DNA of 64,000 bases, from the IMG/VR virus record IMGVR_UViG_3300045988_173642, positions 1 through 64,000 of that record. The stretch is one strand, 5' to 3'. Shown in pieces: positions 1,893 to 57,153 of this stretch. The notes under the pieces are model-generated. The model did no database searches. It had not been told where the DNA came from and saw only the letters and a list, made by a program, of their open reading frames with translations. The translations under genes and the position numbers were made by a program. How positions within the stretch are numbered: the stretch's first letter is position 1; every line of letters starts with the position of its first letter. Origin of the DNA: a virus.

Positions 1893-4685
1893 TCACAACG
1901 CATACACTTCTAATTCAACCTCACCGATGCCTTCCTGCACGGAGATGGAAGTATTAACCTTGTTGATAAGACATTTTCGGCCATCGATGTTCCACCATTC
2001 CTTCCAATGGTTTTTGATGTCGGCCACTTGTGCCACAGATGCCAGCACCTTCACGTAGAACGTCTTCCGATTAAGCAAGAAATAAACATAGTCAATCAAA
2101 AAAGTATCTACCCATCCTCTATTTTTTACAAAGGGGTCGGAGATGATTAACGGCGCGTCGGCCCATTCAGGCTGCACCCAGGCACGCGGTTTGAGCGAGA
2201 AACTATCGGCATTAGCAACGCCATACACATTGCCGTAGCAATCGATGGAATCCGTTGTCAAGGCATACTTCCCTGCCGTTGTTCGCCATTTGCTGTTGCC
2301 GAAGCCATCGTAATCTGGGTCGTAAACCTCGTGCGTGGCGCCTGCGCCGCCGCCCCTCATGATGGCAACGGACAGTCCCCAATCATGGCTTTGCAGCGGA
2401 GAATTGCCATCGTCGGTAGACGAAGGAGAATAGCTCTCACGAAGCGAAAGCACTTCCGTCACATAGAAGTCTGCCACGGGCGAAGAAATGGAAGTCTTGA
2501 TGTTCTGCACGATAAATTCATGTTCCATCTTGTCTTCGATGGAGGCCACCATGATGTTCTCGGCATATTGACTGTTGATGCCTTGAAGTTCCAAGCCTTC
2601 GTACACCTTTCCCGTCTCCGTCGGCTGCTTCGGATTATCCGACACACAAGTGCTATCGAAGTTAGCAGAGCGAGCCTTGCGGTAGTTGGCATCCACCATC
2701 GGAATGGGCACAAAACTTGATTTCATCTCGTGGATATACTCTTCATTTTCATCTGAGCAATCGCCAAACTCCACGCCCTTAAACGCCCCAACTTCAAACA
2801 AACGCGGTTCCATATTGCTAACGTCGGTGTATTGCGAATCAATCTTGACGCGGTATTTATTGCCCGTCTGCTTATCAATGAAAAGCGTGTCGAGCGTGTT
2901 GCTGATTTTCGGCAAGATTTCGCGGTAGGTGAAAGCCGTGGAAGTTTTCTCTTTATTATAGTCTATATAGTCATAGTCCGTGTTATAGTCCTTGACTTTG
3001 TTCTTCACGTTGTCGCGTTGTTCCTTTGCATCGCTCTCTGCGGAATATCCGACCTTGACCCCGGTGATTTTTTCCGTTATCGGTGTGAACGAAAGCACTT
3101 GTCCAAAGAATCGGCGCGGCTGTGGATTTTGCTTGCGAAAGACATCGCGGATGAGATAGGCCGTCACCTTCTTTTGCTCATAGTCGTAGTTGAACTTGAT
3201 GCCAAATTGCTGTTCCAACGACTCAATCACGTCGCTCACCGTCTCGTTGGGGAAGTTCTCGCCGTTGGCATACATTCGGAAAATGCTGGCGCTCATTTCG
3301 GCTCCCGTGATGGTGCTGCGGCAGGTGATGCTGACCACGTCATCTTCTCCAACAACGCGCTGTTCCCAGTCTCCCAATACCTTGACCACCTCCGTCTTCT
3401 TCGTCGTTCCACCCATGAAGTTTTTCTGTTCCTTCTCAACTATCTTATATTGCACGCTGCGGAAACGCACCTGTTGCACGCTCTTGTTCTTTGGGTTTTC
3501 CAACTTCAGATTGCCGCCACATCCGCGAGAATCCAACCAGGCATTCACGTCGTTGAAGAGGTCTTTAACTTCCGATTCGTTGTTGGCTGTCTTCGTGAAA
3601 TAGCCCAACTTCACATCGCCTTTTTTCTTTAATCCGGTGATGACCTCTTTATCTGTTTCATCATAATAGGTCTTGGCATACAAGGGTACAACGTCATAGG
3701 CACATTTCGTCGTGAAGAAACAAAGGCGGTTGAAATCATAGACTTCCGTCAGAGCGTCCTTGTCAAACTGCACGCCAAGGTGTTCGAAGAGACAGTCGAG
3801 GAAAAAAAGCAAATAGAAGCAAATTCCAGACTGCGGCCTGTCGGCATCCAACACCCACAATGGGCCCATGTCTTCATACATCTTGTCGGGGGCTGTTTCC
3901 TGCGCATATTCAACGATTTTACTCGACGTGTTGCCGTCTTCGCCGATGTCGTAATGAGCATAACAGATGCGGGCGTTGCAATAGGGCTTCGTTGGGTAAG
4001 GCTCAGAAACGTTGATGTATGATTCCGTCACCTCCGGAATGACCACCGACTTGCTATTTGGATAATAGCGCGTTTCCTTTTCCACGGCCTTGTGTCCCCA
4101 GGCGCCATCTTCCTTGCAAGCCGCAGGATAGGAGAATCCAAGCGCCTGTGGCGAAAACGTGATGCTATCCTCGCGATCATCACCAACGGAACCATAAACC
4201 TTATTGCCCTTTTTGCCTGCGAATTTGATTTCAACCGTTGTTGAATATTTGACCCTGACATTCACTTCGTCAATCTTCTCGCCAATCAAGAGTCGGTCGC
4301 GATGGCGCGAAGGGATGGGAACTTCGTTACATTTCAAGTCGCCTATGAGGTCGGAGAAAGAGCGGGTGGCTGCATCCACGTTGAGCGAGAGCGAATCGTC
4401 CGCGCGTTCCCCGTCCTGCACAACAGCCGTTCCAGAAGCGAGCGTGATGCCGTCGGCAACAATCTGCATATTGGTATGTTCCAGGTCAACGGGGCGAATG
4501 GCAGCGCTCGGGTCGTCAAGATTTTTGAGGAAATGGCGGTTGCCTTCAAACGGCAGGTCGACTGGGTAGGAAAACATCTCGTCGTCGTTGAAGAGCGGGT
4601 TACGCAGTTCAACGCTGACGGAAAAATCGCTACCCAGCGTCATCGGTTTGCCGTTAGCCAAGATAGAGAGTTTGCTGTTGCTCAT
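1893..4685 (-). CDS. large tail/baseplate structural protein (930 aa)
   Basis: Uninterrupted 930-aa ORF. Its size and its position among tightly packed same-strand ORFs are typical of tail tip or baseplate proteins. No catalytic motif recognised. Confidence 0.6.
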   Translation of the reverse strand: MSNSKLSILANGKPMTLGSDFSVSVELRNPLFNDDEMFSYPVDLPFEGNRHFLKNLDDPSAAIRPVDLEHTNMQIVADGITLASGTAVVQDGERADDSLSLNVDAATRSFSDLIGDLKCNEVPIPSRHRDRLLIGEKIDEVNVRVKYSTTVEIKFAGKKGNKVYGSVGDDREDSITFSPQALGFSYPAACKEDGAWGHKAVEKETRYYPNSKSVVIPEVTESYINVSEPYPTKPYCNARICYAHYDIGEDGNTSSKIVEYAQETAPDKMYEDMGPLWVLDADRPQSGICFYLLFFLDCLFEHLGVQFDKDALTEVYDFNRLCFFTTKCAYDVVPLYAKTYYDETDKEVITGLKKKGDVKLGYFTKTANNESEVKDLFNDVNAWLDSRGCGGNLKLENPKNKSVQQVRFRSVQYKIVEKEQKNFMGGTTKKTEVVKVLGDWEQRVVGEDDVVSITCRSTITGAEMSASIFRMYANGENFPNETVSDVIESLEQQFGIKFNYDYEQKKVTAYLIRDVFRKQNPQPRRFFGQVLSFTPITEKITGVKVGYSAESDAKEQRDNVKNKVKDYNTDYDYIDYNKEKTSTAFTYREILPKISNTLDTLFIDKQTGNKYRVKIDSQYTDVSNMEPRLFEVGAFKGVEFGDCSDENEEYIHEMKSSFVPIPMVDANYRKARSANFDSTCVSDNPKQPTETGKVYEGLELQGINSQYAENIMVASIEDKMEHEFIVQNIKTSISSPVADFYVTEVLSLRESYSPSSTDDGNSPLQSHDWGLSVAIMRGGGAGATHEVYDPDYDGFGNSKWRTTAGKYALTTDSIDCYGNVYGVANADSFSLKPRAWVQPEWADAPLIISDPFVKNRGWVDTFLIDYVYFLLNRKTFYVKVLASVAQVADIKNHWKEWWNIDGRKCLINKVNTSISVQEGIGEVELEVYAL

Positions 4686-4691
4686 GGTGGT

Positions 4692-5363
4692 TTAAATGTT
4701 TTGGGGGGAAATGAATTGCGCCTCGCCATGCAGCGTGACGTTGCGATCGCGATCGGCATAGACAACGGTCTTGCCATAGGCTTCAATCTTCTTAAACGAA
4801 AAGGCCGTAATCTGTCCACCGTGTGCCTCGCAAATCGCTTGGTCATACAAACAGGCATTCGCCTGAGTCACCAACCTGGCATTGTCATAAACCTGCGTGA
4901 AGCCCTTGCTAACATATCCGTAAGCATCGTCGTGGAGATGAATGAAGGCATGACTGACTTTGGAGTACACTTGGCTATGGTCTTTTGCCCGCACCAATGC
5001 TCGGCCCAAGACATAGGCTTTCGCATGGCCGTGGATGTTGATAATATTGCCTTTTTCCACGTCTTGCGTCGTCACGATGACCACCACAAATTCCTGCGCG
5101 TTTTCCGGACACTCGTTGACATAGACCCCTGCTTGGTTCATCTCCTCCTTGATGGATGGATAGATTTCCGGCAGGCGGCGGTTGATGATTTTGACATATT
5201 TGCTTTCCACCACGTCTTCCAGATATTTTCGCCAAACGGCCATCATCTGCCCAACGTTTTCTGCGGCCATCATATCCTTGTAACCCTCTTTGCATGCTTG
5301 CCGTTCATGGCAAGCGGCGGTGCATATCTCCTTCAGTTTTTCGTAAGCTTGTTCTTTTTCCAT
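4692..5363 (-). CDS. hypothetical protein
   Basis: 223-aa ORF lying 7 nt upstream of the 930-aa ORF start, on the same strand. Confidence 0.55.
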   Translation of the reverse strand: MEKEQAYEKLKEICTAACHERQACKEGYKDMMAAENVGQMMAVWRKYLEDVVESKYVKIINRRLPEIYPSIKEEMNQAGVYVNECPENAQEFVVVIVTTQDVEKGNIINIHGHAKAYVLGRALVRAKDHSQVYSKVSHAFIHLHDDAYGYVSKGFTQVYDNARLVTQANACLYDQAICEAHGGQITAFSFKKIEAYGKTVVYADRDRNVTLHGEAQFISPQNI

Positions 5364-14547: not shown

Positions 14548-14588
14548 ACAATGTGCCGACACTTTTCATCCAAAGTTCCGACACATTG
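14548..14588. promoter_or_regulatory. operator-like motif with inverted repeat
   Basis: The string acaatgtgccgacacttttcatc (14548-14570) recurs at 44758-44780 (22 of 23 nt). Locally, caatgtgccg is inverted as cgacacattg (14579-14588). Confidence 0.5.
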
Positions 14589-14796
14589 CAATTTTTGAGT
14601 ACAAATATAGGAAGAACAGTTTTAGCCGTTCGGACATGCTCAAAGCTCCACCAACACCTTTATCTCTCTGTGCCCACCCCCTTGCGTATGCAGCGCGGGC
14701 GATATTCCTTTTGCGGAATACACTCGGCGGCTATTCTCGAACATGCGGTCGTAGGGCGGCGTTTGTATCAGGCCGACAACGATGATGCGCGTGGTT

Positions 14797-15300
14797 TTAT
14801 CCTTCATCGATGCTCACCTTCATGTCCTTCAGACTATGCAAGCAAACCACGCCGTGCCCATCAATCGCCTTCAGGCACGCTGGGCATTCCAGGCAGAACA
14901 CGGAACCAACGGGCGTGCGTTCTCGCTTATGGAGGCACAACGACTTTTTGCTCACATAGAGTTTATTTCTCACCATAAAATCGTTGACAGCACTGACATA
15001 CGTCTTCAGATGTTCATTTTCGGCGCTCAAATCATTACAAAGCGATTTCTTTATTTGTTTGGCAGCGATTTTGTTGTCCTTTTTCATTTCACGAATCTCA
15101 CGCGCCAACTTTTTGTTGTAGTCCATGAGCAGATGCAAGCGCTGCTCCAGCTCTGCGTTTTCTTTCACGGTAATGATGTACTGACGAAGGAGGGCGTGTT
15201 CAAGAGGTTGTTGAGGTGGGTTCTTGGGGGGGGTCTGTGGCCGGTGCGCTTGCTTCTTCTGGCGCATTATTCTCGAGAACAGTAAGCACATCGTCCACAC
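14797..15300 (-). CDS. hypothetical coiled-coil protein with Cys-rich C terminus (probably continuous with 15200..15352)
   Basis: 167-aa ORF with only a GTG at its 5' end. It contains a heptad-rich centre and a CLECPAC...C..H cluster. See the C8-tract finding. Confidence 0.5.
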   Translation of the reverse strand: MWTMCLLFSRIMRQKKQAHRPQTPPKNPPQQPLEHALLRQYIITVKENAELEQRLHLLMDYNKKLAREIREMKKDNKIAAKQIKKSLCNDLSAENEHLKTYVSAVNDFMVRNKLYVSKKSLCLHKRERTPVGSVFCLECPACLKAIDGHGVVCLHSLKDMKVSIDEG

Positions 15301-15363: not shown

Positions 15364-15540
15364 TTACTCAAATTCATAAATAACGTAAGGCGTGGTATTT
15401 CCAAGCCCATCATTCGGATCGGGGAATCCGCCAGGTGGTAAAGTCGTCACGGCGGTGGCAATCTGCTTGCGTGGTCGGCTCTTCACGATGCCTTTGCCAT
15501 CTTTGTTGCGCACCCAGCCGATGTAAAGTTTTTTAGTCAT
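15364..15540 (-). CDS. TRD-like mini-ORF T6 (58 aa)
   Basis: Sequence is MTKKLYIGWVRNKDGKGIVKSRPRKQIATAVTTLPPGGFPDPNDGLGNTTPYVIYEFE. Its ATG is nested in the stop region of T5 (ATGACTAA). The TTL..GG...hydrophobic-strand pattern resembles the end of a C5-MTase target-recognition domain. Confidence 0.45.
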   Translation of the reverse strand: MTKKLYIGWVRNKDGKGIVKSRPRKQIATAVTTLPPGGFPDPNDGLGNTTPYVIYEFE

Positions 15541-15682
15541 ACTCAATTAAAATAATCGTGTGTTGCCCGTGCGCATCATAGAGTCCTGCCCATCCATCGT
15601 AGCGAGCAGAGAGGGCAGTGGAATACCCACGACGCTGACAGATGCAGGAGAGGCGTTGCACGAAAGGGATTTTTTTAATCAT
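15533..15682 (-). CDS. TRD-like mini-ORF T5 (49 aa)
   Basis: Manual translation gives MIKKIPFVQRLSCICQRRGYSTALSARYDGWAGLYDAHGQHTIILIEYD. The TALSARYDG...ILI string resembles the Dcm-type TLSARY TRD string. It is below the ORF-track size cutoff. Confidence 0.45.
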   Translation of the reverse strand: MIKKIPFVQRLSCICQRRGYSTALSARYDGWAGLYDAHGQHTIILIEYD

Positions 15683-15848
15683 ATTCGATGTATAACATAT
15701 TATCCTTGCCAACTGATGTAAGCGTGTTAATTGTACGCTCTCCGATTATCTCCATGCGCTGACGGAATCGGCCGTTTGAGGGGTAACGACGGTCGGATGG
15801 ATTGTTGGGGTTGCGGCCTCGAAAGGACACTATCTGAAAGTTACGCAT
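15675..15848 (-). CDS. TRD-like mini-ORF T4 (57 aa)
   Basis: Manual translation gives MRNFQIVSFRGRNPNNPSDRRYPSNGRFRQRMEIIGERTINTLTSVGKDNMLYIEYD. The RGR...Q.E....NTLTSV.KDN pattern is typical of one C5-MTase TRD class. Confidence 0.5.
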   Translation of the reverse strand: MRNFQIVSFRGRNPNNPSDRRYPSNGRFRQRMEIIGERTINTLTSVGKDNMLYIEYD

Positions 15849-15864
15849 AGGAGATTATCTTTCG

Positions 15865-16156
15865 TTACGGTGCTGATGGTGTTGCTCCACGGCCACGGAC
15901 TGGGGAGATGCAGCTTGTCTTGAAACCGACACCCGCCCCGGTCGCCATGCACGCGGCGGTAGGCTTTGGCATGTTCCGTTCGGAGATGGATAAGGACGGC
16001 GCGGCGTAATCATACGCTATCAGTATTTTCGGTTTGTCAACATCGTGCCCCTTTCCACCACCAACCAAACAAGGGGAGATACCAAGGGGCGAAACGATGG
16101 TGCCGTTCTGCGAGGGGCTGTAAGAGCCGAGGATGATGGGGCGAGGGGGTGTTCAT
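15865..16156 (-). pseudogene. TRD-like module T3 with no clean start (frame break or read-through)
   Basis: The frame ...PRPIILGSYSPSQNGTIVSPLGISPCLVGGGKGHDVDKPKILIAYDY...VRGRGATPSAP is open from the TGA stop of T2 (16153-16155) to the TAA at 15865. The ATG at 16156 is in a different frame and would join only if the C5 run lost one C. ORF track shows the part from a TTG at 16068. Confidence 0.35.
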
Positions 16157-16320
16157 AATTCTACTGCTACATAATAGTGGTTACGACTGCTGACACCGGT
16201 TTGAATGGTGTAGACAACGCCCACACCGAATCGCTTGTTGTAGGTGTCGACCCACAAAGCATGAGCGGGGCGAAAAACACGTTGGTACATTTGTTCAAGA
16301 CGGGCGTTCTTGTTAAGCAT
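16153..16320 (-). CDS. TRD-like mini-ORF T2 (55 aa)
   Basis: Manual translation gives MLNKNARLEQMYQRVFRPAHALWVDTYNKRFGVGVVYTIQTGVSSRNHYYVAVEL. Its ATG is nested in the stop region of T1 (TATGCTTAA), and its stop overlaps the next ATG (TTATGA). Confidence 0.4.
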   Translation of the reverse strand: MLNKNARLEQMYQRVFRPAHALWVDTYNKRFGVGVVYTIQTGVSSRNHYYVAVEL

Positions 16321-16471
16321 ATTCAAAGATTACTCCTATTGCATCAAAGCCATCTCTTTTCGTGAATAGGAAGTTTCGGGTTCCCATCTTGAAATAGTTA
16401 GCTTTTATCATATGGGCGAGTGGAGTGTTACCCCCATTTGCCGCATTGAGGATTCTTTTATTCAAACTCAT
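16313..16471 (-). CDS. TRD-like mini-ORF T1 (52 aa)
   Basis: Manual translation gives MSLNKRILNAANGGNTPLAHMIKANYFKMGTRNFLFTKRDGFDAIGVIFEYA. It lies 52 nt downstream of the methyltransferase core stop. Confidence 0.4.
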   Translation of the reverse strand: MSLNKRILNAANGGNTPLAHMIKANYFKMGTRNFLFTKRDGFDAIGVIFEYA

Positions 16472-16525: not shown

Positions 16526-17854
16526 CTATTTCTTTCCAGGTTTCCTTTCCATATTCTCCTTGAACAACTGCTCAAAGCCTTCGCACGGCATGGTTCCGTT
16601 GGTGGCAAACTTTTCGTAGTTGTCCATGATGTTAGGTGTCTGGCGTTGCAACAGGGCTTCAAGTTCGGTTGGCGATTTGCTCCATCCGTCCAACTCATCC
16701 ATCGCGATTTGCAATGACGTTTTGAGGAACATCGCCGCCTCATGTGTAGGCGGCAAGGCGAATTGCACGAAGAGGGCATTATCCGAGTCGTTGGCCTTGA
16801 GGAACTTGCTAACGGCATCATATTTGAGGAAGAATCTGTCGGCCACCTCTTCTTCGAGAACATCCTCTAAACGGGTCTTCAATTCAAAAGGCGCAGGAAA
16901 CTGATATTCAAAGGCCACATCGCTGCGCATGGAGAGGCAGAACACGCGGTCGCGGTTTTGCGGCACACCATAGTCTTTGGCGTTGAGACGTGCCCAACGG
17001 CTCACATAGCCGAGCGACGAGAGCTTGTCGAGCCACTTTTGAAAGTCGGGCATAAACTTCTGGCTCACCAGTGCCGCCACGTTCTCCTGCAAGAGATACT
17101 TCGGGCGAAGCACCTCCACGGCATCTGCCACGCGCCACAAGAGGGCACTTCGCGTATTGCTACCATCCGTCAATCCCATCTGCTTGCCAGCCTGACTGAT
17201 GTCTTGGCAGGGCGAAGAGTAAGTGAAGAGGTCAACTTCGCTCCCCTGGAGCGACGCCTTGACGGCGTGCCAGTCAATCTTGGTGATGTCGCCAAGAGCG
17301 CGGTTGGCAAACTGCGGAAAGACGAGGTTGTGCATCTGGCAGGCATATTTATCGATGTCGCTCCATCCCATACACGTCCATCGGAAATCGGGATGTCGCT
17401 CCTTCAGCACATCGGCCGCCATGAGCTGAGAATCATAGCCGGAAAACGTCGTGATGATGATTTTCTCGCCACTATCACCTTTGTCAACGGGAAACGCTGG
17501 TAACATCTGCTCGGGAAACATCGTCAACTGCTCATGGCTTTTCACAGGTTGGCTGGGGTACCACAACTGCTCATAGATGTAAGACAACACGTCCACCACA
17601 ATGGAATTACCCGCTTGCTTATATTGCTGACTGGCAGAAACGGCCATCTCCTCTGGCTTACCCTTGGCTTTCCAATCGGGAAGAATGGCCGAAGACTGGG
17701 CGTTGGTGCTCTGCATCGTGCGAATCACGCCCTCACGCACCCCCATCAAACGGAAACATTCGGGGGGGTAAGTTTGCGGATGGCATAGCTTTTGATGGTG
17801 TGGTCGGTGAAATTCAGTTTGGTGATCATTAGTTCGGTTTTTAGTTGTATTCAA
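16526..17854 (-). CDS. DNA (cytosine-5)-methyltransferase catalytic core, circularly permuted motif order (IX-X-I..VIII), no internal TRD
   Basis: Motifs read in order are: PPECFRLMGV (IX), YKQAGNSIVVDV (X), TTFSGYDS (I), SDIDKYA, GDIT, SSPCQDIS (IV, PCQ), QENV (VI) and QNRDRVF (VIII). The ORF-track start at 17854 is a TTG. The natural ATG at 17829 (MITKLNFTDHTIKSYAIRKLTPP...) is out of frame by one nt at the homopolymer 17762-17768. Confidence 0.85.
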   Translation of the reverse strand: MNTTKNRTNDHQTEFHRPHHQKLCHPQTYPPECFRLMGVREGVIRTMQSTNAQSSAILPDWKAKGKPEEMAVSASQQYKQAGNSIVVDVLSYIYEQLWYPSQPVKSHEQLTMFPEQMLPAFPVDKGDSGEKIIITTFSGYDSQLMAADVLKERHPDFRWTCMGWSDIDKYACQMHNLVFPQFANRALGDITKIDWHAVKASLQGSEVDLFTYSSPCQDISQAGKQMGLTDGSNTRSALLWRVADAVEVLRPKYLLQENVAALVSQKFMPDFQKWLDKLSSLGYVSRWARLNAKDYGVPQNRDRVFCLSMRSDVAFEYQFPAPFELKTRLEDVLEEEVADRFFLKYDAVSKFLKANDSDNALFVQFALPPTHEAAMFLKTSLQIAMDELDGWSKSPTELEALLQRQTPNIMDNYEKFATNGTMPCEGFEQLFKENMERKPGKK

Positions 17855-17992
17855 TCATAACGCCTGCATCATTCACATTAGCCTTCAGACATCGGCTTAC
17901 TCCGATAAGGCTTCCACGGTTGAACTCGGCTGTTACTTGCGTAAATACCCCCCGACTTTCGGGATGTGGTAGTTGATTTTGATTTTTGGCAT
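17841..17992 (-). CDS. TRD-like mini-ORF b, frame broken at a 6-nt homopolymer
   Basis: The ATG at 17992 gives MPKIKINYHIPKVGG and then stops early. Adding one nt to the run 17948-17953 joins it to VFTQVTAEFNRGSLIGVSRCLKANVNDAGVMIEYN, which is the ORF-track frame 17841..18023. Confidence 0.4.
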
Positions 17993-18051
17993 ATTGTTTT
18001 ATTATAATTCCACAAACACGCAAACTCCGCCGCCTGACGCGGTCAGAGAGT

Positions 18052-18360
18052 TCACCAACTTACCCCCCCGGCTGTTCTGCTGCGCCTCAGTGCCGAAGAC
18101 GGATAACTGAGGTCGGCAGCTCCGTGGCAGGGGCAATCGGTGTAGCCCAGCTCGGTGGCTTGACGTATGCGAAGGAACGTCTCGCCACCTACGTCCACCA
18201 ACTGAAGGAACGGGCGGTCGGAGGTGGAGTAGATGCGGTAGAGCGAGCCGTCGGGATAGCGTCCATACAGTTTGCCGTCCTTGCGGATGGTGCCGCGCTT
18301 ATAGTGAGGCGGGGCACTTCGGGGCGCAGGTTGGTTTTTGCGGGGTTTTAGTGAAACCAT
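18052..18360 (-). CDS. TRD-like ORF a (102 aa as sequenced; 119 aa ending at 18002 if the 7-nt homopolymer had 8 nt)
   Basis: The string LRIRQATELGYTDCPCHGAADLSYPSSALRRSRTAGG matches the ATKKGY...S.TRRGRVG TRD pattern of phage C5-MTases. With one extra nt at 18063-18069 it continues GKLVNSLTASGGGVCVFVEL followed by a stop. Confidence 0.45.
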   Translation of the reverse strand: MVSLKPRKNQPAPRSAPPHYKRGTIRKDGKLYGRYPDGSLYRIYSTSDRPFLQLVDVGGETFLRIRQATELGYTDCPCHGAADLSYPSSALRRSRTAGGVSW

Positions 18361-18365
18361 GTGCG

Positions 18366-44891: not shown

Positions 44892-46040
44892 ATGAACATA
44901 AACATTACGCTTCCAGAAGCCTTAGACCGCGCTTCGGAACGACTACGAAAGAAGATGCTCCACTCGGTGGAACTATTGCAAAAGGCAGAGAAAATTGCGC
45001 TTAGCTATGATACTGAGCAAGGTTATTATTTAGCCTTCAGCGGCGGCAAGGATTCGCAGGCGCTTTACCACATAGCGCAATTAGCAGGCGTGAAGTTCCG
45101 GGGACACATGAACCTCACGAGCGTTGACCCTCCGGAGGTGATACGTTTCGTTAAGCTAAACTATCCAGAAGTAGAACTTATCAAGCCCAAGAAATCCATC
45201 TTTCAAATTGCGATTGAACGGCAGTACCTTCCGACGATGAGAGCTCGTTGGTGTTGCGAAGAATACAAAGAGAAGGCAGGATCGGGCAAAGTGACGCTTA
45301 TCGGCATCCGCAAAGCAGAGAGCGCACGGCGGGCGAAACGCAACGAGGTTGAAATCAGTAGTCGGAAATTCAGCGGCGACCTTGAAGCGCTGGAGGCCTA
45401 CAGGCAGGAACAACGCGCAAAACGCGCACGGCTACAGTCAAAGAAAAAGGGCGTTAACATCACAAATGCCGACAAAGAAACAACCCTTGGTTGCATCCAC
45501 GGCAAAGAGAGTTTGCTCATCTCGCCCATCATCCACTGGGCGGAACAAGATGTATGGGAATTTCTCAACGACGTGGTGAGCGTGTCACATTGCGCGCTAT
45601 ACGATGAAGGTTGGCACCGCATCGGCTGCATAGGTTGTCCGATGAGTTCGTACAAGCAGAAAACACTGGAAAACGAACGCTACCCACACGTGAAACGCGG
45701 TTGGCTTCGGGCCATCAAAAGAATCCGTGATGTGGGGGGACTTCAAAAGAGAATATATCTGGTGGAACATCCGTTCGAACTGGATGCCGATGCAAAACGT
45801 CGGCAGATTGCTCCGAACGCAGGCGGCTACATCAAGCATCCAGCCCCGGAACACAGGATGGGAAAAACGTTCGGGTTTTCATCTTGCTCATCTTCTGACC
45901 GCTTGAACGATGAGCAAGAAAACGAAATAGCGGAGAACATCTACGACTGGTGGATTTCGGGAAAATCATACAAACGATGGTATGCTGAGAAATTCCAACA
46001 GATGAAATTGGATTTTAAAGAGGAAACTAACAATGGCTAA
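44892..46040 (+). CDS. PAPS-reductase-like (PP-loop ATP pyrophosphatase) protein with C-terminal Cys cluster
   Basis: Has a PP-loop (YLAFSGGKDSQA), RWCCEEYKEK and a later GCIGCPM. It resembles the phage DndC/IbrA-like family. Confidence 0.65.
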   Translation: MNINITLPEALDRASERLRKKMLHSVELLQKAEKIALSYDTEQGYYLAFSGGKDSQALYHIAQLAGVKFRGHMNLTSVDPPEVIRFVKLNYPEVELIKPKKSIFQIAIERQYLPTMRARWCCEEYKEKAGSGKVTLIGIRKAESARRAKRNEVEISSRKFSGDLEALEAYRQEQRAKRARLQSKKKGVNITNADKETTLGCIHGKESLLISPIIHWAEQDVWEFLNDVVSVSHCALYDEGWHRIGCIGCPMSSYKQKTLENERYPHVKRGWLRAIKRIRDVGGLQKRIYLVEHPFELDADAKRRQIAPNAGGYIKHPAPEHRMGKTFGFSSCSSSDRLNDEQENEIAENIYDWWISGKSYKRWYAEKFQQMKLDFKEETNNG

Positions 46041-55062: not shown

Positions 55063-56250
55063 TTAGTCATCTATGACCATCGGCATACACATGGTGAGCA
55101 CTGACGGTGCAGGAATATCGGCCGTGAACAACATCTGATGTCTCTCATCCGAAAATTGCATGCGGATGTCTGGCGCATCGATGGCACTCAGTGCTGAAGA
55201 AAGGTAAGATGAGTTGACGCCGATGCGGAATCCATCAAGACATTCGGCATTGGAGACCAGCACTTGGTCAGCAGCCGACGTAGAGAAGTCAACGTCGCGC
55301 GAAGAGACATCCAAGAACATACCGTTTTTCTCAAGCACAAGCAGGTTGCTCGACTTGTCGCCAAACAGACTAACGAGCTTGATGGTCTCCAGCATTTCGC
55401 GCTTGTTGAACACAACGTAATACGGATTGCCACGCGGAATGACGGAACCGTAATTCGGATATTTCGCCTCGCAAGTTTTACAAATGTATTCCATCGACCC
55501 TGAAACGAACCTCAAAGAATGTGTGTCACATTCTATGTGAATTTCTTCACATCCGTCAAACACAGAGACGGCGCGGAAATAAAGTTGCGGAAGCAACATC
55601 CTGCTGGGCTGACCACCACGGAAGAAATCTCCACCGCCTGTTGCTGGATTGTTTGTGTAGTTGGTCTTAATAAGTCCGTGTCCATCCGAGGCAACAAACA
55701 CCACATCTGACAAATCTTCTGCCACATCGATGCAGATACAGTTCATCTGCGGCCGGATGATGTCTTTGGCTGTGAACGGAGCGGAATTGTCCAACACCTT
55801 TGAGAAGAACGGAGACGGCAGGGTAATGCACGTCTTATCTTCCATCAAATCTGGCGAAATCGGGAAGTCCTTGCCATCGAAGTAAGCGAAATTGGCTTTG
55901 CCTTCTTTTACTTGCCCGCCGCTCTCCGTGCAATAGGAAAGTGAAACACTCTTGTTGCTGCCATCGAAATCGAAGGTCAGCGTGCAATCTGGAAGAGAGG
56001 AGATAAACGGCAGAATGGTCTTCACTGGCAACGCGATTGGGGAATCAAGATTGCCGTCGAAGATGGTCAAAGGGGCTGGCAGCGTTAACTGAGAACTACT
56101 TGTAGCGGCCACGAAGAAGAAGACTCCGTCGGCATGGCGAACGAGCAACACGTTATCCAGGATGGCCAACGAGTTTTTGGTGGAGATGGCTTTGGAGGCT
56201 TTCTGCAAGACCTCTGCAAGCAGGCGTGAGGATTGAGCTTGTAATTTCAT
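55063..56250 (-). CDS. dnaN: DNA polymerase III beta sliding clamp
   Basis: The N terminus (MKLQAQSSRLLAEVLQKASKAISTKNSLAILDNVLLV...FFFVAATSS) follows the DnaN pattern. The 395-aa length fits three clamp domains. Confidence 0.7.
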   Translation of the reverse strand: MKLQAQSSRLLAEVLQKASKAISTKNSLAILDNVLLVRHADGVFFFVAATSSSQLTLPAPLTIFDGNLDSPIALPVKTILPFISSLPDCTLTFDFDGSNKSVSLSYCTESGGQVKEGKANFAYFDGKDFPISPDLMEDKTCITLPSPFFSKVLDNSAPFTAKDIIRPQMNCICIDVAEDLSDVVFVASDGHGLIKTNYTNNPATGGGDFFRGGQPSRMLLPQLYFRAVSVFDGCEEIHIECDTHSLRFVSGSMEYICKTCEAKYPNYGSVIPRGNPYYVVFNKREMLETIKLVSLFGDKSSNLLVLEKNGMFLDVSSRDVDFSTSAADQVLVSNAECLDGFRIGVNSSYLSSALSAIDAPDIRMQFSDERHQMLFTADIPAPSVLTMCMPMVIDD

Positions 56251-56265: not shown

Positions 56266-56871
56266 TTAAAATGGAAGGTCGTCTTCGTTGAAGTTAGAAC
56301 CAAAGGCATAGGCATCATTCTGTTCGGCCGACGGCACATAAGCCGTTGCTGCGCCTGCCGTCTGATAGTTGGGTTGCGGCGTGGTTGACGGCGCTGCCTG
56401 CTGTTGTGGCTGATAGAGCATAGCCAAACGTTTGTTCATTCGACTGCGAAAGGCTTTAAAGAGATGTGAGGTCTCATCCTGCACGTTCTGCGTGACGATA
56501 CCTGGATCGCGATCTTTGTTCTGCTGCTTCACCTGCTCAACGAGACCGGGAGCCTTGGCAGCAATGTACTTGACATAGTCCGTTGAATAAGACATCTGCA
56601 CTTCGTGTGTCGGCACATTCACGTTTGCATCGCCGCGTTCCTGCGCCGAGCAGCGGACGGCCTTCTTATAGTTTTCGTTGAGTGGCCAGATGTTCACACG
56701 TAATCCTGCAATCTGTTTGCTGGGGTCGTTTCGCGAAACAGTCAGTTTGATTTCGTTGAAGTCTACAGGAATACAGACATACGCACGTTGTGGATTCTTC
56801 TGATCTACTCCTGTCATAACCTGTGCACCATTCAAGGCCAACAGGTCAATACTGCCATTGTAACTTGCCAT
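56266..56871 (-). CDS. putative single-stranded DNA-binding protein (non-canonical N domain, Q/P linker, acidic DDLPF tip)
   Basis: Has SSB-type architecture: a folded N domain, a Gln/Pro/Ala-rich linker and a C-terminal NEDDLPF (compare E. coli SSB DDDIPF). It lies in the replication module. Confidence 0.5.
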   Translation of the reverse strand: MASYNGSIDLLALNGAQVMTGVDQKNPQRAYVCIPVDFNEIKLTVSRNDPSKQIAGLRVNIWPLNENYKKAVRCSAQERGDANVNVPTHEVQMSYSTDYVKYIAAKAPGLVEQVKQQNKDRDPGIVTQNVQDETSHLFKAFRSRMNKRLAMLYQPQQQAAPSTTPQPNYQTAGAATAYVPSAEQNDAYAFGSNFNEDDLPF

Positions 56872-56919: not shown

Positions 56920-57153
56920 TTAATAGAGCCTACCGCGAGGGTCACTCATGTCGTCCATCGTCTTTACGCGAAACCATTTCTTTGGTCGGTTTTTCTTCTT
57001 ATAGACCGCTCCAAGACTGATATAGTGAGCGCAGGCGAGATGGAAAGGCGAAATACTGCCGCCGAACAACGGCGAACTTTTCTCACGACAACTGTTTTTG
57101 ATTTGGTCGTATGAGATGCAGTTTTCGCATCTTGGGGGGGTATATGTTCGCAT
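56920..57153 (-). CDS. small Cys-containing protein
   Basis: 77-aa ORF. Contains a G7 run (57134-57140) in frame. Confidence 0.4.
   Translation of the reverse strand: MRTYTPPRCENCISYDQIKNSCREKSSPLFGGSISPFHLACAHYISLGAVYKKKNRPKKWFRVKTMDDMSDPRGRLY

Follow-up and report, generated by a model that had tools for sequence, protein, structure and literature searches.

Candidate slipped-strand contingency tracts in a phage C5 cytosine methyltransferase locus with a permuted core and separate target-recognition genes

Introduction

Contingency loci of phages have been recognized only recently, and mainly in receptor-binding genes. The closest described examples are the hypermutable poly-G tracts in the receptor-binding proteins of Fletchervirus, presented as phage contingency loci by Sorensen et al. 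(2021, Cell Rep 35:109214) in the form in which that work is cited in PMC12823448, and the contingency loci of T2 and T4, in the description of which a poly-G tract in the methylase gene of BPP-1 is mentioned as unstudied (bioRxiv 10.1101/2025.10.21.683753). Here, we report on a C5 cytosine methyltransferase locus of a gut phage in the IMG/VR virus record IMGVR_UViG_3300045988_173642, of which positions 1 to 64,000 were analyzed (a stretch of 64,000 nucleotides, hereafter "the window"). In this locus, three G/C homopolymers break the reading frames of a methyltransferase core gene and of two small genes for putative target-recognition domains (TRDs), and comparison with related loci suggests that these homopolymers act as contingency tracts. 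Like those of the Campylobacter phages (Fletchervirus) and of T2/T4, they belong to a class of homopolymers of approximately 7–11 bases within phage open reading frames (ORFs) that vary in length between close genomes and shift the frame, which has been read as bet-hedging. However, the Fletchervirus and T2/T4 tracts reside in receptor-binding or glucosylation genes, whereas sequence comparison places those of the window in a DNA-modification locus, where several tracts occur together and where, as far as the sequences alone can tell, a master switch in the core is combined with separate switches in the TRD genes.

Repeat-driven, phase-variable methyltransferases have also been described in bacteria, i.e., the Type III mod phasevarions and the homopolymer-bearing enzymes of Helicobacter pylori (PMC3936762, PMC4209511, PMC7383803). 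With the locus studied here these systems have in common a simple-sequence repeat inside an ORF, ON/OFF states that depend on the frame, and recognition-domain alleles that define specificity. They are, however, cellular and mostly N6-adenine enzymes that reprogramme host expression, whereas the window encodes the C5 enzyme of a phage without integrase, for which a role in a regulon is unlikely. In the window, unlike in the bacterial systems, the recognition modules also seem to be switched individually, as separate genes.

Two other groups of C5 enzymes are relevant for comparison. The multispecific methyltransferases of the Bacillus phages SPR, phi3T, rho11s and H2 are said to have been the subject of work in the Trautner laboratory. 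These enzymes, and other multi-module PF00145 proteins, resemble the locus of the window in their series of short TRD modules, which belong to the same sequence families and of which each is expected to confer one specificity. In the Bacillus phage enzymes the modules are fused between motifs VIII and IX and always co-expressed, whereas those of the window are separate mini-genes with their own starts and stops, located on both sides of a permuted core and in many cases carrying a frameshift-prone tract. Circularly permuted and split C5 methyltransferases are represented by M.BssHII, M.AquI and M.EcoHK31I, which share with the window the motif order IX-X-I..VIII and, presumably, the reconstitution of function from more than one chain. 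To our knowledge, none of these three has many alternative recognition subunits or homopolymer switches.

Results and Discussion

Frame breaks and tract lengths in related loci

The three tracts, i.e., G7 at site A, G6 at site B and C7 in the core (Table 1), were found where the original prediction had placed them, and the sequence and its translations bear out that each of them breaks a frame. At site A, ORF a (102 aa, with its ATG at 18361) ends in ..RTAGGVSW, and in the frame one step back, which equals the addition of one base, gene A reads on to ..GGKLVNSLTASGGGVCVFVEL and a stop at 18002. At site B, MPKIKINYHIPKVGG as sequenced is followed by YLRK and a stop, and one step back the mini-gene continues as VFTQVTAEF..AGVMIEYN to a stop at 17841. 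The leader of the core begins MITKLNFTDHTIKSYAIRKLTPP and as sequenced reads MITKLNFTDHTIKSYAIRKLTPPNVSV up to a stop at 17746; one step back, ECFRLMGV.. opens a frame of 442 codons down to 16526. At all three sites it is thus a tract inside the ORF that sets the reading frame. As had been predicted, each of these three breaks is repaired by adding one base; three further breaks of the locus (16145-16149, 16006 and 15226-15233), which were not part of the prediction, do not follow this rule. The ORFs of 930, 1224 and 1862 aa elsewhere in the window are all open, as had been claimed.

A comparison of tract lengths among related phage genomes, which had been proposed as a check, revealed that they vary at orthologous sites. 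For this comparison 80 related loci were fetched from IMG/VR, and the statistics on breaks and runs given below cover 81 loci; pattern scans of IMG/VR for further copies of the core tract returned only the contig of one of these relatives (L002). Pure runs at site A were G6 (3), G7 (5, the window included), G8 (13), G9 (4) and G11 (1), with only G8 and G11 in frame, while 31 of the 33 site A tracts that are interrupted by another base are in frame. The alleles at site B were G6 (6), G7 (3) and G8 (1), and clustering of the runs by their flanks showed the same length variation at some twenty more sites in other TRD mini-genes.

The repaired readings had been considered biologically meaningful, and intact orthologues indeed exist for all of them. 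L002, with 94% nucleotide identity, has G8 and an intact A of 119 aa; L083 and L045 have G7 and an intact B; and L056, L058 and a variant of the window's own strain (L095) have C8 in the core, which in L056 and L058 reads MITK..IRK(L/F)TPPECFRLMG without interruption. Approximately 70 further relatives possess no C run at the core site (TPKEC, TPLEC or TPFEC) and are in frame, and L027, with C7 then AC at this position, needs one base fewer. In the lineage of the window (the window, L002, L083 and L084), every core is broken near its start, in three of the four at C7. In the fourth, L084 (L084:1480-1540; ERZ1034917 NODE-63), the C run is not continuous and keeps the frame (SPTECFRLMG). The gene is broken instead by the lengthening of a G5 to G6, which lies 20 nt further downstream, directly after motif IX, and represents a second, independent route to switching off the core.

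Contigs of the same strain as the window were collected from ENA by searching public assemblies for proteins identical to RtcB and to mini-protein D. They had been assembled by MEGAHIT and SPAdes, at least 7 SRR runs of PRJNA217052 are named in their records, and the counts refer to assemblies other than the window's own record (L092); they are independent as sequencing and assembly events, their hosts not necessarily so. Most of them match the window without a difference (100% identity) along 2.4-9.9 kb. Site A was G7 in 12 of 12 assemblies and site B was G6 in 14 of 14; the core tract was C7 in 13 and C8 in one (L095, ERZ27229642), which has two substitutions and a gene call that starts from the MITKLNF ATG. 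The tract at 15226-15233 was C8 in six assemblies and C9 in two, both of the latter slightly diverged. L084, a 102-kb contig with 117x coverage from another sample that is approximately 95% identical, has G7 at site A too.

Across the 81 loci, with frame breaks called from adjacent tblastn segments lying in different frames, 82 of 100 well-supported breaks fall on G/C runs of at least 6, although such runs make up only 0.26% of bases. G runs of at least 6 were intact in 121 and broken in 82 cases, compared to 220 intact and 5 broken for coding A/T runs of at least 6. The length distribution of coding-strand G runs is bimodal (G5 196, G6 49, G7 67, G8 62, G9 24), with a second peak at 7-9; the long runs are confined to the TRD arrays that flank the core, and in-frame lengths account for 60% of runs vs. 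33% expected under neutral length. Two contigs (G001 and G002) share an overlap of 51,900 bp that contains no substitution, and their sole differences are in four G/C tracts of at least 7 (G7/G8, G8/G9, G7/G9 and C7/C8), whereas 27 of 27 A/T runs of at least 7 are identical. Tract length thus differs between close genomes, with the rest of the gene conserved, both family-wide and in G001/G002; within the strain this holds only for the core (C7/C8) and the tract at 15226 (C8/C9).

The source record of the window is a complete virus genome of 99,985 bp with direct terminal repeats. In this genome G/C runs of at least 6 number 12 vs. 30 expected from base composition, and three of the four runs of at least 7 lie within the 3.7-kb methyltransferase locus, a clustering that exceeds chance. 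GGG represents 10% of its Gly codons, and GGG-GGG was found in none of the 69 Gly-Gly pairs in long genes. Because G/C runs of at least 6 are depleted, GGG is rare and GGG-GGG is absent from long genes, the long runs of the methyltransferase locus are maintained against the genomic trend, and the tracts are apparently selected.

Methyltransferase core and recognition genes

The core matches PF00145 with E = 6.5e-46 and, in phmmer searches, M.MpeI, M.HhaI and M.HaeIII with E = 1e-24 to 1e-11; the catalytic motifs I, IV (PCQ), VI (ENV), VIII (QxRxR) and X are readable in its translation, as in C5 methyltransferases. PF00145 positions 294-322 are found at 17564-17650, on the coding strand upstream of positions 23-222 at 16772-17377, and query residues 42-72 (the motif X region) pair with the C-terminal motif X of M.MpeI in a match that is individually non-significant (i-Evalue about 6.6e3). 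The core is, therefore, a circularly permuted C5 methyltransferase of the M.BssHII type, with motifs IX and X before I in one polypeptide. The core gene of 14 relatives contains a G7 run of its own (AGAATAATGT-G7-CAAGAAATCG; loci with the core at 4001-5236, position about 4519), which is in frame and G7 in 14 of 14.

Some ten small ORFs on the same strand flank the core and encode C-termini of the form ..VEL, ..IEYN, ..FEYA or ..IEYD. Most TRD genes of the family contain a poly-G run coding for a Gly-Gly(-Gly) loop, and the core of the window's lineage contains a poly-C run coding for Pro-Pro in motif IX. A Pfam scan of eight mini-ORF proteins retrieved no family, save one weak match at chance level, and phmmer with mini-ORF J against PDB sequences found nothing; a profile of family J retrieved from PDB only weak matches, suggestive but non-significant (E about 1), in which the TRD regions of M.MpeI and M.HhaI were aligned. 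In a library of 1.8 billion proteins, this profile (alignment A1) matched 1,526 proteins at E <= 1e-3, and the nine long matches scanned all proved to be PF00145 proteins, in each of which 2-6 stretches were matched. In the full-length proteins P0023 and P0032, J-like, G/F-like and B-like modules stand in tandem just ahead of ..IRKLTPTECWRLMGW or ..RRLTPLEYWRLMDF, and in the methyltransferase P0032 the B-like module directly precedes motif IX. Because the J profile matches PF00145 enzymes and modules of these three types stand in tandem in P0023 and P0032, the mini-ORFs are true target-recognition modules encoded as separate genes, gene A being a putative one. The earlier designation of a "textbook motif IX" and of TRD readings holds.

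At the Gly site of mini-gene C, G8 in L002 (NGGGN, in frame), G7 in L083 and L084 (broken) and G5 in the window indicate that tracts gain and lose whole codons and not only single bases. As a separate observation, of 227 coding-strand runs of at least 6 G, 150 have TA as the next two bases (G(n)TAA, TAC, TAT or TAG; L002-L081), which implies that the last Gly codon is nearly always GGT and that the next codon starts with A. This pattern may stem from a shared ancestry of the modules or from a mechanistic signal, or it may be due to a stop that follows at once in one of the off frames. Downstream of mini-gene J, two near-identical assemblies (L105 and L106) differ from the window at 14576 by a 22-nt insertion (CACATTTGATGAAAAGTGTCGG-like) that duplicates a TGTCGGCAC motif in a non-coding stretch.

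Among the further breaks of the locus, the tract at 15226-15233 is one base shorter in L002 and L083, where the gene is fused, and the extra C at 16006 looks like an ordinary frameshift. Stop-codon read-through at the in-frame TGA between D and E was considered and rejected; L002, L083 and L084 are one base shorter and have the overlapping ATG in frame there.

Table 1. Positions of the tracts, further frame breaks and genes of the methyltransferase locus in the window.
Feature	Position	Strand	Remarks
G7 tract, site A	18063..18069	-	Inside TRD gene A; in-frame length in relatives G8 or G11, coding RTV-GGG-KLVN
G6 tract, site B	17948..17953	-	Inside TRD mini-gene B; in-frame length in relatives G7
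C7 tract, core	17762..17768	-	Codons 23-25 of methyltransferase core, motif IX TPP/ECFRLMG; in frame = C8
C5	16145..16149	-	At start of TRD mini-gene E; L002, L083 and L084 one base shorter; ATG at 16156 out of frame with TRD body
Extra C	16006	-	Outside any long run; E loses its TAG stop, and ATG (16013-16011) of mini-gene F is shifted; absent from L002, L083 and L084
C8 tract	15226..15233	-	Splits 50-codon ORF (15352->15200) from 167-aa ORF (15300->14797); needs one base fewer
TRD gene A	18002..18361	-	Split: ORF a (18361->18052, 102 aa) and C-terminal piece ..KLVNSLTASGGGVCVFVEL (stop at 18002); intact 119 aa in L002
TRD mini-gene B	17841..17992	-	MPKIKINYHIPKVGG / VFTQVTAEF..AGVMIEYN; intact 50 aa in L083
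C5 cytosine methyltransferase core, circularly permuted	16526..17828	-	Motif order IX, X, I-VIII; sole PF00145 core in genome
TRD mini-gene C	16313..16471	-	Intact; Gly site G5 (NGGN)
TRD mini-gene D	16153..16320	-	Intact; Gly site interrupted in window
TRD mini-genes G (15848->15675), H (15682->15533) and I (15540->15364)	15364..15848	-	All intact; Gly sites short or interrupted
TRD mini-gene J	14640..14807	-	Intact; family profile matches repeated recognition modules of full-length multi-module C5 methyltransferases

Slipped-strand switching and alternative explanations

With moderate confidence, we interpret the homopolymers as slipped-strand contingency tracts that would switch the permuted C5 core and the separate TRD genes of a phage anti-restriction methylation locus. 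Slipped-strand mispairing during replication would add or drop a base in a tract, and this gain or loss would turn the affected gene off, or on again, as a heritable state; the poly-C tract in the core would be the master switch and the poly-G tracts in the TRD genes the individual switches. In this strain the core (C7), A (G7) and B (G6) would all be off at the consensus level, with a C8 "on" variant of the core in existence. The changes are probably frequent and reversible within the phage population, the mini-proteins may dock on the core, and the pay-off could be bet-hedging between host restriction enzymes that are blocked by 5-methylcytosine (m5C) and methylation-dependent restriction. 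Slipped-strand variation had been one of the explanations in the original prediction, and it agrees with the polymorphism of orthologous tracts, with the occurrence of both C7 and C8 core alleles in one strain, and with G001 and G002 differing only at tracts; the invariance of A and B within the strain speaks against it. The associated idea of a "phasevarion" is unlikely to apply; no integrase or resolvase was found when searched for in the complete, terminally repeated 99,985-bp genome, and because the phage is without integrase a role in a host regulon is improbable. Self-protection from restriction is the likelier, more natural role.

Several points weigh against slipped-strand switching. 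Tracts of G6 and G7 are short for fast switching, A (12 assemblies) and B (14) did not vary within the strain and the core was off in 13 of 14, and the same-strain assemblies possibly represent one cohort or re-assemblies of the same runs. The core is also off in L002, L083 and L084. About 18% of family-wide breaks (18/100) lie off tract, the frameshifts in mini-genes E and F of the window that are not in tracts point to ordinary decay also at work, and L002 and L084 have additional one-base indels right after the ATG of B; some recognition genes are simply decaying, as expected of accessory modules when the core is off. Furthermore, all four tract differences between G001 and G002 are longer in one and the same contig, a possible hint of technical bias.

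An alternative is that of fixed pseudogenes, i.e., a locus that is decaying in this strain, with homopolymers merely the likeliest sites of inactivating frameshifts and no adaptive, reversible switching. The constancy of A and B in 12-14 assemblies, the core being off in 13 of 14 and broken in all four members of the lineage, and the off-tract breaks are all in line with this explanation, and since neither A nor B varied within the strain, fixed decay may apply at these two sites. For the locus as a whole we nevertheless consider it unlikely. Downstream of the break the core retains 400 codons without a stop and a ratio of non-synonymous to synonymous substitution rates (dN/dS) of 0.15-0.22 in the window's lineage, calculated for within-lineage pairs only as distant pairs were saturated; the changes in its 23-codon leader, read by eye from the lineage sequences, are almost only synonymous (7 vs. 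1 non-synonymous). The core is thus still under purifying selection, although all four lineage members are broken, and on the basis of its dN/dS long-term pseudogene status was judged unlikely. Also the C8 revertant or variant in the same strain, the long GGG-based tracts kept against codon usage with their length peak at 7-9, and the 60% of tracts in frame argue against decay. The persistence of purifying selection in broken cores would mean either that the off states arose recently compared to the divergence, as with frequent switching, or that the gene is expressed despite the break.

The latter possibility brings in recoding, whereby out-of-frame alleles would still be expressed via RNA polymerase slippage or a -1 ribosomal shift, e.g., on C CCC CCG, a heptamer that has the form X XXY YYZ in the right phase. 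Apart from the selection on the broken cores, the identical one-base-addition correction for all three breaks in the window would be consistent with it. We regard recoding as improbable, however, since most relatives are simply in frame, the broken alleles at site A deviate by -2, -1 and +1, L027 and C8 at 15226 need the opposite correction, and the folding of the 82 nt that follow each tract is not significantly more stable than that of shuffled sequences (z = -0.75, -0.67 and -1.64). Bacterial transcriptional slippage is efficient on A/T runs, whereas the runs of the window are short and G/C. Together with the in-frame state of most relatives and the two-way deviation, this makes the transcriptional slippage of the original prediction appear disfavored, although it may occur at a low level. 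Programmed -1 ribosomal frameshifting was rejected for lack of a conserved out-of-frame layout and of significant downstream structure, with deviations occurring in both directions.

Still more doubtful is the suggestion that the core break does no harm, with translation starting at an internal ATG (17746, MGVREG.., 406 aa), the N-terminal 27 residues being dispensable or a separate peptide. In every C7 assembly, gene callers arrive at the 406-aa product, L084 is broken just after motif IX and not inside it, and M.EcoHK31I is a natural C5 methyltransferase with motif IX on a separate chain; yet approximately 70 relatives keep the leader fused and highly conserved, the break of the window lies inside motif IX so that neither piece has the whole motif, and the breaks in A and B are left unexplained. 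Finally, homopolymer under-calling during sequencing or assembly, for which one could adduce that the breaks are on homopolymers only and that the G001/G002 differences share one direction, is hardly credible and was rejected at the consensus level, as the same G7, G6 and C7 recur in 12-14 further assemblies, for which two assemblers were used and at least 7 runs are named, the L084 contig at 117x coverage has the same kind of break, coding A/T runs are almost never affected, and the invariant, intact G7 in the core of 14 relatives provides an internal control, i.e., G7 as such is not miscalled.

Genome context

The RtcB ligase gene ends 5 nt ahead of gene A, and megablast of the methyltransferase locus against GenBank phages gave no match. 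The phage encodes a tape-measure-like protein (the 1862-aa ORF) and its own sliding clamp, a DNA polymerase III beta clamp. The latter and a PAPS-reductase-domain protein (PF01507) are encoded by the pair of genes at window positions 44892-46040 (+) and 55063-56250 (-); the PAPS-reductase-domain protein may be part of another DNA or nucleotide modification pathway. The sole G/C run of at least 7 outside the methyltransferase locus is an intergenic G7 (C7 on the gene strand) at window positions 57134-57140, in the 324 nt that separate the 1224-aa ORF from the gene that follows (56266-56871), where it might tune a promoter or spacer.

Conclusions

In this phage a contingency device appears to govern, module by module, which DNA sequences are methylated. 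A further-reaching and more tentative possibility is that methylation is combinatorial and stochastically switched, through a poly-C master switch and some ten free-standing recognition subunits, many with a poly-G switch of their own. If so, the population would continuously yield genomes with different sets of protected sequences, including none, which would be a hedge against both kinds of host, those whose restriction enzymes are classical and those whose restriction depends on methylation. On the practical side, such genes are routinely mis-annotated as fragments or pseudogenes, and the consensus sequences of metagenomes hide switching. If confirmed, our interpretation would imply that the specificity of a C5 methyltransferase can be supplied by exchangeable small subunits, and it would explain in simple genetic terms how gut phages can contend with host restriction systems that are very diverse and change fast.

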